Source of the DNA: Alphaproteobacteria bacterium | GTDB taxonomy: Bacteria > Pseudomonadota > Alphaproteobacteria > GCA-2746255 | Assembly (NCBI GenBank): GCA_965249135.1 | Contig: OZ252220.1 | Span: forward strand, 1,504,001-1,568,000 | DNA length: 64,000 nucleotides | Direction of reading: 5' to 3' | Part shown: piece after piece, positions 24,147 through 29,448 of the stretch | Layout: every line of letters begins with the position of its first letter | Position numbering within the stretch: the first letter of the stretch is position 1 | The notes under the pieces: model-generated | The model's database searches: none | The model's input: only the letters and a program-made list of their open reading frames with translations | Told to the model about the DNA's origin: nothing | Position numbers and translations under genes: made by a program

Positions 24147-25556
24147 ATGCCCGAGCGTGGTCAGCCCCGAACCATTCCCAAGCGTTGGTTCCTCCTGTGG
24201 GCGGCCGTCGTGGCACCCGGCGTCGGCGTGCTGGCGCTGCTGGTCCTGTTTAGCCAGGCCACGCTGTGGCCGGCGATCCTTGGCGGGACGCTGGGCGCCG
24301 TCGCGCTTTTCTTCATCGTTCGCGCCTATCTCGCCGATTTCGATGCGGTCATCGCCTATATCGGCGATCTGGCCCGGGGCGGAAAGCCGCCGACGCCGGA
24401 AGTTCGCGGGCATAGCGCATCGGATGAAATTCTTTCCGTGATCGAGGCGCTCAACCGATCGCAGATCCGGCGAACGGCGGAACTTGAAACGCTCGCCGAA
24501 GCAAACGTCACCATCCTCGACAGCATCCCCGATCCGTTACTTCTGCTCGACGGCGCGCGGCGGATCCGTCAGGCGAACCGGGCGGCGCGCGCGTTGGTGA
24601 CGGCAAATCCAATCGGTCAGGATCTCGCCGCCGTCATTCGCGATCCGGTGCTTCTCGAGGAAGTCGACGTCGCACTCGAAACCCGGTCGGATCGCGAGGC
24701 CCAGTTCACGTTTCCCTATCCCCGCCCGCAGCACTTCCTGGTTCGCATCATCCCGCTTGCGAAACCAGCCAAGGATGGCACGGCATTGATCGTCAGCCTC
24801 CACGATCTTACGGCGGTGAAGCAGTTGGAACAGACGCGCGTCGACTTCATCGCGAATGTGAGCCACGAACTCCGCACGCCGCTTTCCACGCTCGTCGGTT
24901 TCATCGAGACCCTCCAGGGGCCCGCAAAGGATGACCCGAAAGCGCGCGCGCACTTCTTGGAAATCATGGATGGTCAGACGAAACGGATGGTGCGGTTGGT
25001 CGAAGACCTGCTCTCCCTTTCCCGGATCGAGCTTAGCGAACATCTCTTGCCCCCCGGCACGGTTCCGATCGGCGATGTGCTGAAGACGTTACGTGACATG
25101 CTTGCGCTCGAGGCGAAATCCCAAGGCATGACGATCGAGCTCGAATTGGCGGCAGACCTGCCGGAGATCCCCGGCGACCGGGACGAGCTGACCCAGCTCT
25201 TTCAGAACCTCATCGACAACGCCATCAAATATGGCGGCGCCGACACGGTGATCCGGATCGCGGCAAGAAAGGTGGCGCGTCCAACTGTGAGCGGCCTTCC
25301 CGGACCGGTCCTTAGCGTGGCGGTGCGGGACGAAGGCGAGGGGATCGCGCCGGAGCATCTCTCGCGGCTGACGGAGCGTTTCTACCGCATCGACCGGGCG
25401 CGTTCGCGGGAGCTTGGAGGCACCGGGCTGGGCCTGGCCATCGTGAAACACATCGTGAACCGCCACCGGGGCAGGCTAACGATCGAAAGCACCCTTGGAA
25501 CGGGCAGCATCTTCACGGTCTTCCTGCCTTTGGAGGCGGAAGCGGTACAGTCCTAA
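24147..25556 (+). CDS. phoR: Phosphate regulon sensor kinase PhoR (last codons supplied by the IS end)
   Basis: TM segments, PAS, DFIANVSHELRTPL, NAIKYG, GGTGLGL; upstream of pst operon. Confidence 0.9.
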   Translation: MPERGQPRTIPKRWFLLWAAVVAPGVGVLALLVLFSQATLWPAILGGTLGAVALFFIVRAYLADFDAVIAYIGDLARGGKPPTPEVRGHSASDEILSVIEALNRSQIRRTAELETLAEANVTILDSIPDPLLLLDGARRIRQANRAARALVTANPIGQDLAAVIRDPVLLEEVDVALETRSDREAQFTFPYPRPQHFLVRIIPLAKPAKDGTALIVSLHDLTAVKQLEQTRVDFIANVSHELRTPLSTLVGFIETLQGPAKDDPKARAHFLEIMDGQTKRMVRLVEDLLSLSRIELSEHLLPPGTVPIGDVLKTLRDMLALEAKSQGMTIELELAADLPEIPGDRDELTQLFQNLIDNAIKYGGADTVIRIAARKVARPTVSGLPGPVLSVAVRDEGEGIAPEHLSRLTERFYRIDRARSRELGGTGLGLAIVKHIVNRHRGRLTIESTLGTGSIFTVFLPLEAEAVQS

Positions 25557-25637
25557 TTTGGGATGAAGTGTCCTAAATACGTGCATGGAGTGTCCAAAAT
25601 TAACCGAACACTAACCCAGCCGAGGCATTAATGAATT

Positions 25638-25919
25638 ATGGAATCCAAGACTGATATGCGCGCCGATCTAGAGCGGGTTCTAGCCTGGGCCAACGAAAAG
25701 CTTGCTGCGGGACAGGAGCCCCCGTGGGCTTGGTATCAGTACATGAAGCTGCGCGAGACGCTTGAGGCCATCTTGGCGGGGATGGATGCCGTTACCACGG
25801 AGGGTTCACCTCAATCGGCTGAACATTTGGAAAAGCATCTCCGGCTAGTGGCAGATACCGATCCGCAAGATAGCGCTCCACGCCGTCCCGCTGGGCTGCC
25901 GACACGGCTGCCCATGTGA
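25638..25919 (+). CDS. Hypothetical small protein (cargo), overlapping the nuclease-like ORF in antisense
   Basis: GAGG upstream; helical N-terminus WANEKLAAGQEPPWAWYQYMKL. Confidence 0.5.
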   Translation: MESKTDMRADLERVLAWANEKLAAGQEPPWAWYQYMKLRETLEAILAGMDAVTTEGSPQSAEHLEKHLRLVADTDPQDSAPRRPAGLPTRLPM

Positions 25920-26142
25920 CGTGAAGGACTCCCCGCTTTGCATAAGCAAGAATTTTTGGATCGGCACGGTGTTGGGCCAACCGGCCGGCAACATCTCCCT
26001 GTCCCAAACGAACGACGCGGTCAGGATCGCCTTCATGCCAGATGATGTAAACACCAGCCGTTTTCATATTTAGATTCAGGCGCTCAAACAAACACCAGTG
26101 GCCGTCATCGCCACATTTTATCCATTTAACTGTCAGCATCAT
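25792..26142 (-). CDS. Small GIY-YIG-like nuclease (cargo)
   Basis: GVYIIW...VRLGQG.V..RL.QH...VERYL pattern resembles the GIY-YIG fold; second motif degenerate. Confidence 0.6.
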   Translation of the reverse strand: MMLTVKWIKCGDDGHWCLFERLNLNMKTAGVYIIWHEGDPDRVVRLGQGDVAGRLAQHRADPKILAYAKRGVLHVTWAAVSAAQRDGVERYLADRYLPLAGDAFPNVQPIEVNPPW

Positions 26143-26947
26143 TCGATTCCTTCATTCCCGTAGTTGACGGCTGCCCCTTCTCGCCGTCCCGATAGACAAG
26201 CTCAAAGCTGTTTTCCAGAATACCGAGCCAGAGCTTGCGTTCGGACTTCGGCCATGTGTCGCCGGACTTGGGGAGCCGATTAATAAGCCCCCGAATAATG
26301 GGGTCTAAACTGAACTCATTGCCACCCCCGCCATTGTCGTGCGCGCCGGTCCCACTACCTTTATTATGGTTATCGGCTGGTGGCGTAACATGCCCCCCGC
26401 TTTTAGTGCCAGGCTGGACCAGTCGGTCCTTTCCGTTTTCATAAAAATTGGCTTCAGCGGCAGATCGTTCCAGTGTTTGCCGTGCGCGGGCCTTTTGCTT
26501 TTCAGCAACGCCAAAAGTCACCAAAGCGCGTTCTAGTTTTGCCGCTGGCGGGATTTGTTGACCACGCCAGTTTTCATAAACGCGCTTAAACAACGGGACA
26601 TTGAGGAACGCTTGAACTTTTGCTGCCCGCGCGTGGTGTTCATCAAGCGCTTTGGGCGCGAGATCCGATAGTCGGACGCCGGACGATTTGCCTGACTCGA
26701 TCAAACCAAACAGCCGCGTCGCCGACATGCGGGACCGATAACCGCTGCTCTTGGAACTGAGGTCAGTCCACGCCGCCACCTGATCATCGGTGCAATCGTC
26801 TGCCCCAGCGTTATTTGATATGGCACGGACAATCTTGAGGCATTCGCCCAAGTCAAAATATGGAAATTGAATAGACGATCGTTCGTAGTTGGAACCATCG
26901 CCCTGGTTGCCCTGTGCCGCTGCGTTGGCTTCCTCGTCACCATTCAT
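26126..26947 (-). CDS. Hypothetical ~273-aa protein with possible winged-helix domains (cargo)
   Basis: Own promoter and SD (AGAAAGGA); FPYFDL...SATRLFGLIE region, Gly/Asn-rich linker, C-terminal WPKSERKLWL domain; overlaps start of the nuclease-like ORF. Confidence 0.7.
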   Translation of the reverse strand: MNGDEEANAAAQGNQGDGSNYERSSIQFPYFDLGECLKIVRAISNNAGADDCTDDQVAAWTDLSSKSSGYRSRMSATRLFGLIESGKSSGVRLSDLAPKALDEHHARAAKVQAFLNVPLFKRVYENWRGQQIPPAAKLERALVTFGVAEKQKARARQTLERSAAEANFYENGKDRLVQPGTKSGGHVTPPADNHNKGSGTGAHDNGGGGNEFSLDPIIRGLINRLPKSGDTWPKSERKLWLGILENSFELVYRDGEKGQPSTTGMKESNDADS

Positions 26948-26986
26948 GTGAACCACCCAATCCTTTCTTTTGGATTCAACGGGCAC

Positions 26987-27015
26987 ATTATGAGCGCGAC
27001 TGTCTGCGTCGTCAA
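26987..27015 (-). promoter_or_regulatory. sigma70 promoter for cargo operon
   Basis: TTGACG-17 nt-CATAAT on minus strand. Confidence 0.7.
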
Positions 27016-27035
27016 GCAATATTTTGGATTCGAGG

Positions 27036-27064
27036 TTGACAGATGGATTCGCGGCAGACATAAT
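27036..27064 (+). promoter_or_regulatory. sigma70 promoter for the mini-ORF/tRNA-like transcript
   Basis: TTGACA-17 nt-CATAAT on plus strand. Confidence 0.75.
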
Positions 27065-27092
27065 AGGCTCGCAACAACCGAGGAGACCTGCC

Positions 27093-27176
27093 ATGAGGAG
27101 GGTCGAGAGCCTCTGGCGACGTAGCCGACCAAAGGGGGCGAGGAAAAAGACAGGGGCCGTGCCTCTACCCCGCTAA
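27093..27176 (+). CDS. Putative 27-aa basic mini-ORF MRRVESLWRRSRPKGARKKTGAVPLPR
   Basis: GAGGAG SD 7 nt before ATG, just downstream of the promoter; begins ATG AGG AGG. Confidence 0.4.
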   Translation: MRRVESLWRRSRPKGARKKTGAVPLPR

Positions 27177-27212
27177 AGGTCTGGAACGGCCCCTTAATCG
27201 GCACTAACTGGG

Positions 27213-27283
27213 CCCCGGTTCGTCTAGTGGCAGGACCCCCTCTTTACAGGTCGGAGACCTACGTTCAAATCGTAGACCAGGGA
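27213..27283 (+). tRNA. Degenerate tRNA-Val(TAC)-like cloverleaf (pseudo-tRNA or tRNA mimic)
   Basis: Acceptor CCCCGGT/ACCAGGG (6/7), D arm GTCT-AGTGGCA-GGAC, anticodon stem CCCTC/GTCGG (3/5) with loop TTTACAG, perfect T arm CTACG-TTCAAAT-CGTAG; no encoded CCA. Confidence 0.65.
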
Positions 27284-27284
27284 C

Positions 27285-27291
27285 TTTTTTT
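27285..27291 (+). terminator. T7 tract just after the tRNA-like structure (possible intrinsic termination point)
   Basis: TTTTTTT one base after the discriminator. Confidence 0.4.
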
Positions 27292-27446
27292 AAACCGGGA
27301 ACCGATGGCTGTTGTAGCAGCCACCGGCCCTTGATCAAAAACCCAGGGATTTGGCCCCTGAGCCGTGACCGAGGAATATATAGCAGATTCAGAGCTGTAT
27401 TTCCACAATGGCATGGGCCTATCCCGAGCAAATAGGGATTGGTCCC

Positions 27447-28322
27447 ATGAACATTCTACCGCTTGATAGGCAAATCCAAGCCGTTAGCGCCCTTACCGAG
27501 GGGTGTTCCATCCGCGCGGCCGAACGCCTTACAGGCGTCCACCGGGACACAATCATGCGCCTTGGGGTCCGAGTCGGGGAAGGGTGCCAGCACCTCCATG
27601 ACCGGCAGATGCAGGGGCTTCATGTCCCCATCATCGAATTGGACGAGATTTGGGCCTATGTCGGCATGAAACAACGGAAGGCTGGCCCGCACCCAGAGAT
27701 GGGCGACCAGTACACCTGCACAGCCCTAGACGCGACGAACAAGGCAATCATCTCCTACCTCACAGGCAAGCGGGACGCGCCGAATACTCACGCCTTTGCT
27801 TACGATCTTGCCAGCCGCATTACGAACCGGCCCGAAGTCACGTCCGATGGCTTTGGGCCTTATGTAGAAGCCGTCCTTGGCGCGTTTGGGTATGACGGGG
27901 TGGATTTTGGCCAGATCGTCAAGCACTACGAGGGCGAGCGAGGGCAACAGGCTTCCCGAAAATACTCCCCCGGCCGAATTGTAAGCGTACAGAAAACCGT
28001 AGTATCCGGCACGCCACGTCGCCTTTCGACCTCCCTCGTTGAACGGTCGAATCTAACCCTTCGGATGCAGCAACGGCGGTTCACTCGACTGACCAATGGG
28101 TTCAGCAAGAAGCTCCAAAACCACAAGGCAGCGGTCAGCCTTTTCGTGGCTCACTACAACTTTTGCCGGGTCCACAGTACCATCCAGATCACGCCAGCCA
28201 TGGCTCTTGGGGTCACAGACCACATCTGGACCATCGGCGAATTGATCGAAGCGGCGACCGGACCCGAGCCACAAGGTCACACGGCTGGACGGTTCCGGGT
28301 GATTGATGGCGGATTGTCCTAA
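27447..28322 (+). CDS. IS1-family single-ORF DDE transposase
   Basis: HTH EGCSIRAAERLTGVHRDTI, ELDEIWAYVG, TSDGF, STSLVERSNLTLR, RRFTRLTNGFSKK, TPAMA. Confidence 0.9.
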   Translation: MNILPLDRQIQAVSALTEGCSIRAAERLTGVHRDTIMRLGVRVGEGCQHLHDRQMQGLHVPIIELDEIWAYVGMKQRKAGPHPEMGDQYTCTALDATNKAIISYLTGKRDAPNTHAFAYDLASRITNRPEVTSDGFGPYVEAVLGAFGYDGVDFGQIVKHYEGERGQQASRKYSPGRIVSVQKTVVSGTPRRLSTSLVERSNLTLRMQQRRFTRLTNGFSKKLQNHKAAVSLFVAHYNFCRVHSTIQITPAMALGVTDHIWTIGELIEAATGPEPQGHTAGRFRVIDGGLS

Positions 28323-28366
28323 GTTCATGCGGCGACTGTCCTAATTCAGCCAGTACCGCGGAAGCG

Positions 28367-28384
28367 GCGTCATAAATCCGTCAT
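28367..28384 (+). promoter_or_regulatory. Pho box upstream of pstS
   Basis: GCGTCAT-AAAT-CCGTCAT, two half-sites 11 bp apart. Confidence 0.8.
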
Positions 28385-28410
28385 AGAACTCCGCTACCCC
28401 TTTCTGGGTC

Positions 28411-29448
28411 ATGGGGAGGAAACTGCTTCTCGCTGCCGCTATTGCCGCCGTCGGTCTGGGTTCGGCCTTTGCGTCCGACACCCGCAACCAGATCCGCATC
28501 GTCGGGTCTTCGACCGTCTTCCCGTTTTCCACCGCGGCTGCCGAAGAATTCGGACAAATGACGAACTTCAAGACGCCGGTCGTCGAGAACACCGGTTCCG
28601 GCGGCGGTCTGAAGCTGTTCTGCTCAGGAATCGGGCTCGCTCATCCCGACATCACGAATGCCTCGCGTCGGATCAAGGATTCGGAAGTGGCGAGGTGCGC
28701 GAAGAACGGCGTCGGCAACATCACGGAAGTCAAGATCGGGTTCGACGGCATCGTGCTCGCAAATTCGAAGAAGGCAAAACGCTTCGCACTTACCCGGAAG
28801 GCGATCTGGCTGGCGCTCGCAAAAGACGTTCCGGACGCTTCCGGCAAGTTGGTACCCAATCCCAACACGACCTGGAAGGATGTGGACGCAAGCCTTCCCG
28901 ACAGGAAAATCGAAGTGCTGGGCCCGCCGCCGACGTCTGGCACGCGGGATGCCTTCGTCGAGCTTGCGATGGAAAGCGGCTGCAAGACGTTTCCGAGCAT
29001 CTTGGCGATGAAGAAGACGGACAAGATGAAGTACAAGGCCATCTGCCACTCGATCCGCGAGGATGGGGCCTTCATCGATGCCGGCGAAAACGACAATCTG
29101 ATCGTCCAGAAACTTAAATCGAACCCGGCCGCCCTTGGCGTCTTTGGGTTCAGCTTCCTCGATCAGAACCGGGACAAGGTCCAGGGCAGCCTCGTGGACA
29201 AGGCCGAGCCCAGCTTCGACAACATTTCAAGCGGGAAATATCCGGTCTCGCGTTCCCTATACTTCTACGTGAAGAACGCCCATGTCGGCATCGTGCCGGG
29301 GATTGCGGAATACATCGACGCCTTCACGAGCGAGACCGCCTGGGGACCTTACGGCTATTTGGCCGATCGGGGGCTTATTCCGCTGCCCGTGGAAGAGCGG
29401 GAGAAAGTCCGCAGCGGGGCGATGAGCCTGACACCCTATGCCAAGTAA
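28411..29448 (+). CDS. pstS: Phosphate ABC transporter substrate-binding protein
   Basis: Signal peptide; IVGSSTVFPF, TGSGGG, GPPPTSGTRDAF, YPVSRSLY. Confidence 0.93.
   Translation: MGRKLLLAAAIAAVGLGSAFASDTRNQIRIVGSSTVFPFSTAAAEEFGQMTNFKTPVVENTGSGGGLKLFCSGIGLAHPDITNASRRIKDSEVARCAKNGVGNITEVKIGFDGIVLANSKKAKRFALTRKAIWLALAKDVPDASGKLVPNPNTTWKDVDASLPDRKIEVLGPPPTSGTRDAFVELAMESGCKTFPSILAMKKTDKMKYKAICHSIREDGAFIDAGENDNLIVQKLKSNPAALGVFGFSFLDQNRDKVQGSLVDKAEPSFDNISSGKYPVSRSLYFYVKNAHVGIVPGIAEYIDAFTSETAWGPYGYLADRGLIPLPVEEREKVRSGAMSLTPYAK

Follow-up and report, generated by a model that had tools for sequence, protein, structure and literature searches.

Several insertion sequences (IS) encode structured RNAs that control or guide transposition, such as RNA-OUT of IS10, omega RNA of IS200/IS605, and bridge RNA of IS110, and RNAs of the omega and bridge kind were only recently recognised as functional parts of transposition machines. 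Structures resembling tRNA serve processing or mimicry in other settings, as do the tRNA-like domain of transfer-messenger RNA (tmRNA), the viral tRNA-like structure (TLS), and YrlA. The element described here carries an RNA gene with a tRNA-like body inside an IS of the IS1 family. It is 2,814 bp long and lies at positions 25544-28357 of a 64,000-nt stretch of an alphaproteobacterial genome (assembly GCA_965249135.1, contig OZ252220.1, positions 1,504,001 to 1,568,000), designated here as the window; the genome, a single contig of 2.12 Mb, contains one copy of it. Its cargo consists of two independent recurrent modules, gene A with a divergent RNA gene and the gene pair B-C, and each of them recurs beside transposases of two kinds, IS1-like and IS1595. 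An IS that carries passenger genes belongs to a described class, the transporter IS (tIS; PMC7986276, PMC3129680), and the exceptional status that a sequence-only reading of the window had derived from the passenger genes was therefore overstated.

The element is real and recently inserted. The octamer GCGGAAGC is present directly before it (25536-25543) and directly behind it (28358-28365), and the genomes of the same genus have one copy of this site. Since each copy of GCGGAAGC is followed by GG, the 8-bp target duplication could also be counted as one of up to 10 bp. The left flank was matched in all five other genomes of the genus, with left and right flanks contiguous there, and at the three junctions that were aligned (G401, G402, and G113) one uninterrupted target copy corresponds to the duplication-element-duplication arrangement of the window. 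As these junctions hold a single uninterrupted copy, the element is a true insertion with an 8-bp duplication. Four DNA sequencing runs (contigs, single sample) span both junctions, and no empty-site joint was found among them. The element begins with GGTACAG... and terminates with ...CAGTACC, an imperfect inverted repeat of 20 nt with 75% complementarity; the left terminal inverted repeat is located at 25544-25565 on the plus strand and the right one, with inward GGTACTG..., at 28336-28357 on the minus strand. Such ends are of the GGnnnTG kind, the IS1 consensus. The sequence-only reading had proposed an IS1-family element with passenger DNA, an exact 8-bp duplication, GGTAC/GTACC ends, and an intact transposase, and all of this is borne out, with A, B, C, and the RNA placed between the ends. 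The insertion point is in the last codons of a PhoR-like kinase gene (TIGR02966, 307 bits), 53 nt before a gene of the PstS family. Only the final residues of the kinase are altered (..EAEAAS to ..EAEAVQS, 25520-25560 and 28358-28411), 2.8 kb now separates phoR from the PstS-like gene, and the transposase reads toward pstS. The position of the element may affect expression of the phosphate regulon.

The DDE transposase is coded at 27447-28322 on the plus strand and has 291 amino acids (aa), or up to 304 aa from an alternative start at 27408; relatives align from the Met at 27447. It reached 31.3 bits with Pfam DDE_Tnp_IS1 (PF03400), above the gathering score of 24.1, and 55.9 bits with the NCBIfam IS1 equivalog NF033558, below its cut-off of 100, and is a distant member of the family. 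Plasmid homologues with 40-42% identity carry the annotation "IS1 family transposase". D66, D134, and E199, assigned as the catalytic triad by position and not by structure, are conserved at 95% or more among 53 homologues and are all kept in the window copy, where the open reading frame (ORF) is open. The transposase is coded by a single ORF of 291-304 aa and not by the two ORFs with a programmed -1 frameshift of classical IS1. Single-ORF members of the IS1 family are known. The same transposase family was found in 44 of 401 sampled genomes of the class, the genome of the window counted; the one unpublished genome flagged in that survey is the basis of none of the statements made here.

Subterminal repeats, overlooked in the sequence-only reading, are present at both ends of the element. 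Three copies of GTCC(T/A)AA are located on the left (25550-25556, 25570-25576, and 25592-25598, plus strand) and two of GTCCTAA on the right (28316-28322 and 28338-28344, plus strand). All five have the same orientation on the top strand, and the ends are asymmetric. The relative L183, whose transposase is 61% identical, terminates in the same GGTAC(T/A)G sequences, has GTCCTAA repeats in the same layout (three on the left, two on the right), and is flanked by an 8-bp target duplication of its own, GGGCGGTC, but its cargo differs (a DUF6471 protein and a 279-aa ORF) and gene A is missing. Because L183 conserves the repeats without A, they belong with the transposase, and those on the left are likely its binding sites. 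The left arm of the element is a cargo bay. The element, which was inserted once, is a transporter IS and represents a distinct clade of the IS1 family; a single pair of ends encloses A, B, C, and the RNA, and with only one transposase gene and one duplication it is no compound transposon.

Gene A (26126-26947, minus strand) codes for 273 aa, and the start of this form is shared with 26 relatives. Altogether 242 relatives were found at E <=1e-3, all without names, and no credible family was recognised for A in Pfam (two weak matches, E 0.15-0.2), NCBIfam, PHROGs, or PADLOC. The AlphaFold model (pLDDT 80.5) is confident for residues 21-180, followed by a disordered Gly-rich linker and a two-helix C-terminal domain. 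A winged helix spans residues 31-105, for which VIA-align gave Z of 9-10 to MarR-type winged helices and regulators. The larger N-terminal region (residues 20-186) gave Z 8.0 to BrxA (DUF1819) 7zge_A (149 aligned, rmsd 3.6) and Z 8.1 to 3bhw_B, both in the range common for unrelated models. A profile search of PDB sequences gave nothing meaningful for A, and ESM Atlas gave, besides clusters without names, only an auto-named Mrr-like N-terminal domain and a DUF5343 lead at 0.87. Longer, fused forms of A were not found by search, which is weak evidence, and no match to A was found in the 72,556 plasmid records searched.

The neighbourhoods of A were compared in 80 genome loci with an A relative, and the choice of bait protein and the length of the contigs both bear on the counts. 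A transposase is encoded within 2.5 kb of A in 53/80 loci, either IS1-like (36) or IS1595 (18, assigned according to PF12762 and PF12760), and in 47 of the 72 loci having at least 1.5 kb on both sides. The window-like layout, with the IS1-like gene directly upstream of A and divergent, was seen in 32 of the 80 loci. A basic protein of ~130 aa (...GGIARAKKLTPAERKEIAQRAAQARW...) is encoded convergently just 3' of A in 22/80 loci, e.g., L050:5962-6357; it has no Pfam family and is absent from the window.

Genes A and B (the latter at 25792-26142) overlap by 17 nt. Their operon is preceded by a minus-strand promoter at 26987-27015 (TTGACG-17-CATAAT, 10/12 consensus), and the RNA unit by a plus-strand promoter at 27036-27064 (TTGACA-17-CATAAT, 11/12 consensus), whose -35 box is conserved in the alignment of relatives. 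Three promoter-like sites were found in the region, against 1.3 +/- 1.0 in shuffles. Repeated TGGATTC motifs (27021-27057, with a further copy near 26961) overlap both -35 boxes of the divergent promoters as a candidate operator, and in related loci the corresponding position is occupied by repeats that are palindromic or of the TATCCA type. By binding these candidate operator repeats, A probably acts as regulator of both promoters.

The RNA gene is arranged in the order of promoter, Shine-Dalgarno sequence and AUG, hairpin P1 with invariant GCCGA in its loop, purine-rich tract, hairpin P2, AAUCGGC, 10 nt, tRNA-like element, and T7 tract. Its structured leader (27107-27202, plus strand) includes P1 (27109-27114 with 27134-27139), the purine tract, P2 (27152-27163 with 27183-27194), and a pseudoknot of GCCGA (27124-27128) with UCGGC (27198-27202), and scores 46.6 bits with R1, a covariance model built from nine relatives. 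R1 matched 19 places in 99 sources, namely the window, 16 of the 80 A loci, L185, and L186, and the leader with its tRNA or tRNA-like gene is divergent from A or an A-like gene in this same set. L186 was scored without A by tblastn, yet it has a distant A-like gene at the equivalent position. On another 99 sources, the 80 metagenome B loci included, R1 gave one weak match, and a search of 150 other genomes of the class, in which the filters were strict and few candidates reached scoring, gave none. The sole leader match among the B loci (L128:3778-3878, 26.9 bits, E 0.0013) precedes B by 120 nt, and an IS1595 transposase is encoded at the same locus.

Covariation points to a maintained fold of the leader. 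In the model-made alignment, 91.2% of cells were paired versus 79.9% in shuffled ones, and none of 500 shuffles was as high, with the caveat that P1 and P2 were fitted to the R1 model; slid controls went down to 27-52% paired. Compensatory changes were present in 16 of 25 leader pairs (10/12 in P2, 5/8 in P1, and 1/5 in the pseudoknot), and the pseudoknot is 97.9% paired although it stands outside the model. RNAalifold, when run on plain MAFFT alignments, recovered only the long-range GCCGA/UCGGC helix, and P1 and P2 required the model-based alignment. The leader is a real structure, and the RNA is conserved and associated with A.

A mini-ORF of 27 codons (MRRVES..., 27093-27176, plus strand) with a Shine-Dalgarno sequence opens before the leader and has its stop inside the P2 loop. 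An ATG is present 13-17 nt 5' of P1 in 19/19 loci, and the stop is inside the P2 loop in 10/19. A conserved peptide was rejected as an explanation of the mini-ORF, since lengths range from 4 to >85 codons in differing frames. A guide function was considered for the RNA (27071-27446) and rejected as well; against the empty target or the IS ends its longest matches are 6-7 nt, no better than in shuffles, for the one locus compared. The leader also occurs beside transposases of the other family. At L039:3763-4756 it precedes an IS1595-family transposase in a window-like layout without a tRNA body, and at L021:3374-4345 an IS1595 transposase gene is found beyond the leader-tRNA unit, convergent with the tRNA.

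In 17 of the 19 leader matches, the leader is succeeded after at most 13 nt by a body that is a tRNA or resembles one; L004 retains acceptor and T arms only (as judged by eye), and L039 has lost the body. In the window the body is at 27213-27284 on the plus strand. It was called as tRNA-Val(tac) by ARAGORN and matches Rfam tRNA RF00005 with 39.8 bits (gathering score 29), and it has an anticodon-like UAC and two mismatches (non-standard pairs) in the anticodon stem. The terminator-like T7 tract behind it (27285-27291) is specific to the window copy and is absent at that place in aligned relatives.

Two classes of bodies were distinguished. Class 1 comprises 16 sequences including the window, when L182, L188, and L125 are counted. 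Its acceptor, D, and T stems covary, with compensatory changes in 13 of 16 predicted pairs (16 relatives; the alignment was unfitted to any model). The same 16 relatives share no consensus anticodon stem; a conserved CUUACAR-type loop is present, and the T loop is TCCGAAT, with C at position 55, in 11 of the 14 sequences compared. An intact anticodon stem combined with a canonical T loop across relatives, as expected of a functional decoder, was not found in class 1, and the body is closer to tRNA-Glu than to the host tRNA-Val(UAC). At 14 of 16 class 1 loci the transposase gene comes directly after the body, and the conserved hairpins P3 and P4 lie between the two. These hairpins and a TGACC...ATATA block, together at 27293-27400 on the plus strand (invariant alignment columns, block in 11 loci), bridge the class 1 body to the transposase start. 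A 3' fragment of a tRNA (T arm, acceptor strand, and CCA) was noticed at L182:1205-1260, ~10 nt before the tRNA-like element, in an element without A and the P1-P2 leader.

Class 2 was found at four loci with the same leader upstream (L017:4535-4620, L018:4556-4644, L021:4533-4621, and L006:4591-4690). The bodies are canonical tRNAs with a long variable arm, the ochre anticodon UUA, and encoded CCA, with scores of 61.5 (the highest) and 49.7 bits. An intrinsic terminator follows the tRNA in L017, L018, and L021, and identity to tRNA-Ser(UGA) or tRNA-Tyr(GUA) of the window's genome is 80-82%. The class 2 genes are predicted natural suppressor-type tRNAs on mobile DNA. A correspondence between the P2-loop stop of the mini-ORF and their ochre anticodon was tried and rejected, as the stop is UAA in only 2/4 loci.

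The second module is composed of B and C. Gene B (25792-26142, minus strand) codes for 116 aa and has 444 relatives. Its model (pLDDT 78) was matched by Foldseek to UvrC N-terminal domains with probability 1.0, rmsd 2.6, and E 3e-3, and with TM-scores of 0.53 on query length and 0.65 on target length. The conserved motifs are in the order GVY..RIG..R54..E89..N113, an invariant Arg45 occupies the position of the YIG tyrosine, and a short Cys/His-bearing hairpin is present at the N-terminus. Pfam gave no family for B at E <=1, GIY-YIG included, apart from a weak DUF2267 match, and a profile search of PDB sequences gave nothing meaningful. According to the modelled fold, B is a nuclease-like protein of the GIY-YIG kind. 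The near-consensus back-to-back promoters, the two-gene operon of a 273-aa protein overlapping a 116-aa ORF, the GIY-YIG-like character of the latter, and the tRNA-like RNA ending in T7 had all been read earlier from the sequence and agree with these results.

Gene C (25638-25919, plus strand, 93 aa) had been overlooked. It is convergent with B and overlaps the 3' end of B by 128 nt, and the same convergent, overlapping arrangement is found in 77 of the 80 metagenome B loci, with ORF lengths of 87-101 aa (60 sequences). Outside the overlap, entropy at codon positions 1, 2, and 3 is 0.83, 0.66, and 1.49; third positions vary about twice as much as first and second ones, and C is therefore coding. 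ESM Atlas gave no usable match for C, and in the searches of NCBIfam and PHROGs with A, B, and C the sole result was a weak PHROGs match of C (E 0.094). No model of PADLOC-DB 2.0 matched the transposase, A, or B; two weak PDC-M05B matches of C overall are read as chance. When relatives were searched, PDC-M05B appeared weakly in 1/20 C members and SspB weakly in 1/24 B members, neither credible.

B and C are linked to each other and recur beside transposases, and B is no regular partner of A. No B relative was found in the 80 A loci, while only one of 87 B loci contained A. A transposase is encoded at most 2.5 kb from B-C in 24/80 loci, IS1-like in 8 and IS1595 in 16, and in 8 of 18 loci with long flanks; these counts depend on which protein served as bait, and the metagenome contigs were often short. 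The pair is directly 3' of an IS1-like transposase on the same strand in 10 loci, with a median gap of 25 nt. ARAGORN called tRNAs near B in 6/80 loci, of which L125 only is of the tRNA-like kind. A 93-nt tRNA-Ala(tgc) was called by ARAGORN at L157:1487-1579 and L158:2929-3021, directly before a transposase C-terminal fragment and B.

Part of the cargo is repeated elsewhere in the genome, which the sequence-only reading had likewise overlooked. A piece of 244 bp (26085-26328, the C-terminus of A and the start of B) has two further copies with 98% identity. These copies (L003 at ~1,012,250 and L002 at ~1,059,000, G000:C1) are in a >2-kb repeat, 46.7 kb apart, which contains a 119-aa ORF with the C-terminal domain of A and a decayed start of B. 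L002 additionally has a C-terminal fragment resembling a tyrosine recombinase. The two repeats may flank an island bounded by direct repeats.

The reading preferred here, with moderate confidence, is a composite one, in which a transporter IS carries two separable cargo modules, one producing an A-regulated read-through RNA processed at its tRNA-like part and the other being the B-C pair of nuclease and partner. By binding the repeats that overlap both -35 boxes, A would determine how strongly its own operon and the RNA are expressed. No promoter-like site was predicted upstream of the transposase between 27292 and 27446, and because no other such site precedes the gene, the transposase of the window copy would depend on read-through of the leader, the tRNA-like element, and T7 for its transcription. 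Processing of the RNase P/RNase Z type at the tRNA-like body would split the leader from the transposase mRNA and keep the transposase low. The RNA preceding the transposase is thus probably a leader, or tRNA-like unit, that undergoes processing. B-C would comprise a nuclease and a partner that controls it, and would hitch-hike on IS1 and IS1595 elements as an addiction-like or conflict module. Several points weigh against this composite. The class 2 leader-tRNA of L006, L017, L018, and L021 reads away from an IS1-like transposase or is without one, which misfits an untranslated region of the transposase, and the T7 tract of the window, judged from sequence, argues for a self-contained RNA. 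The spacer is <230 nt with no leader in 17 of 32 divergent A-transposase pairs, so that neither A nor the transposase requires the RNA. In the helices P1 and P2 and in the pseudoknot there are more A-C cells (20) than G-U cells (11); the hairpins may act on either strand, and P2 with its pyrimidine run could be a terminator of the minus strand. Taken as a whole, the 225-nt unit has a fold little better than that of shuffles (z -1.70). The co-occurrence counts behind the composite also depend on the bait protein, and many of the metagenome contigs are short.

The presence of one conserved leader before two unlike tRNA bodies suits an alternative in which A and the leader-tRNA gene are an autonomous cargo system unrelated to transposition, with IS1 and IS1595 as mere carriers; a winged-helix repressor would gate a dedicated tRNA or tRNA mimic, in some relatives an ochre-reading tRNA with a long arm, and the role of this RNA would be to change translation or to serve in conflicts of phage or element with the host. 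This is considered possible, yet doubtful. The canonical class 2 bodies (the scores cited above, CCA encoded, own terminator in L017, L018, and L021), the occurrence of the module with either transposase family in varied arrangements, L004 without an adjacent transposase, and the T7 end of the window copy are all in its favour, but decoding by class 1 is made doubtful by the missing consensus anticodon stem and the C mostly found at T-loop position 55, the body is directly upstream of the transposase at 14/16 class 1 loci with conserved P3/P4 between, and no defence family was matched. The absence of the leader from the 150 other genomes of the class, under the strict filters used, suggests a rare element and no widespread system. 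A broader proposal, that A with its divergent leader-tRNA gene is a previously undescribed mobile RNA-protein system, spread by IS1 and IS1595, whose repressor gates a tRNA or mimic via a pseudoknotted leader bearing an upstream ORF (uORF), and which reprograms translation, serves in phage conflict, or supplies an RNA cofactor for DDE transposition, is judged unlikely. B-C could instead be an accessory of transposition. TnsA of Tn7 cuts the strand left by the DDE enzyme, and B could similarly be a nuclease for the second strand that turns replicative into cut-and-paste transposition, as its place directly 3' of the IS1-like transposase in the 10 loci and beside IS1595 transposases in 15-16 loci suggests. 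This is quite improbable; B is in 0/28 transposase loci of the class sample and 0/80 A loci, most of the clade is without it, no transposase is within 2.5 kb in 10 of 18 long-flank B loci, and the protein has only 116 aa and no evident DNA-targeting domain.

Least probable is the model that the sequence-only reading had favoured, with B as toxin or defence effector and the tRNA-like RNA as its antitoxin or cofactor, similar to type III toxin-antitoxin (TA) systems. B does have a nuclease fold and shares one mobile element with the RNA around the divergent promoters, but no relatives of B were found in the 80 A/RNA loci, the leader is in one of 80 B loci and weak there, and the few tRNA calls near B include a single tRNA-like one. 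The co-occurrence of homologues, which had been named as a check, contradicts the nuclease side, as B relatives are mostly without the leader RNA and their constant neighbour is C (77/80). The likeness to type III TA is not sustained either, with a GIY-YIG nuclease, an RNA without tandem repeats on the opposite strand, no co-occurrence, and no PADLOC match. What stands of the earlier RNA-protein module is the pairing itself, which exists with A (16/80 A loci, window, L185, and L186); the nuclease B is not the partner.

Compared with the described systems, the composite reading places the element as follows. It shares the DDE_Tnp_IS1 match, the N-terminal helix-turn-helix (HTH), the 8-bp duplication, and IS1-annotated plasmid homologues with the IS1 family, but it is 2.8 kb and not ~0.8 kb long, has a single transposase ORF without the insA/insB' frameshift, and carries same-direction subterminal repeats at both ends, internal cargo, and a long structured leader. 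As in tIS of the IS1595/IS1 superfamily, passengers lie inside one pair of ends, the same-ended relative L183 has other cargo, and A and B-C occur also with IS1595; the recurrent cargo, a winged-helix protein with a tRNA-like RNA gene and a GIY-YIG gene pair, is different. With GIY-YIG nucleases (UvrC N-terminal domain, I-TevI, and R.Eco29kI), B has the fold and the order of GVY, Arg, Glu, and Asn in common, but it lacks a Pfam GIY-YIG match, has Arg45 for the second tyrosine and only 116 aa, and possesses a Cys/His-bearing N-terminal hairpin and, as obligate partner, a convergent gene. As in other tRNA-like structures, the RNA keeps its acceptor, T, and D arms but not the anticodon arm, and a pseudoknotted domain lies upstream; the setting inside an IS, divergent from a winged-helix gene, differs. 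Rfam at E <=1 gave nothing besides tRNA except a chance-level BjrC68 match on the minus strand (16.6 bits vs gathering 39, E 0.8). The literature searched contains no description of the cargo (leader with tRNA-like RNA, winged-helix geometry, or B-C); ISfinder and the 2009 IS1595 paper were outside its scope, and an earlier name is possible. An IS with passengers is thus a known kind, while for the covarying leader with tRNA-like RNA, the fixed winged-helix geometry, and the B-C pair no description was found in Rfam, Pfam, NCBIfam, PHROGs, or PADLOC.

A and B-C represent hundreds of unannotated genes without a family name in soil and water metagenomes. Their function, once worked out, would reveal how these elements control themselves or which selectable trait they move, and a suppressor tRNA that is both mobile and regulated would have a natural example in those relatives whose tRNA carries an ochre anticodon. 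The nearest comparison remains with the IS-encoded structured RNAs, which likewise are conserved, covarying, non-coding, and placed beside the transposase gene inside the element. Here, however, the RNA has a tRNA-like body and a mini-ORF and belongs to a DDE transposase, this copy has no above-chance complementarity to its target or ends, and the RNA is linked to A at least as tightly as to the transposase. What this DDE-type IS clade carries is another sort of conserved RNA; its leader, pseudoknotted and covarying, is joined to a tRNA-like body, and its gene is always divergent from one for a winged-helix protein.

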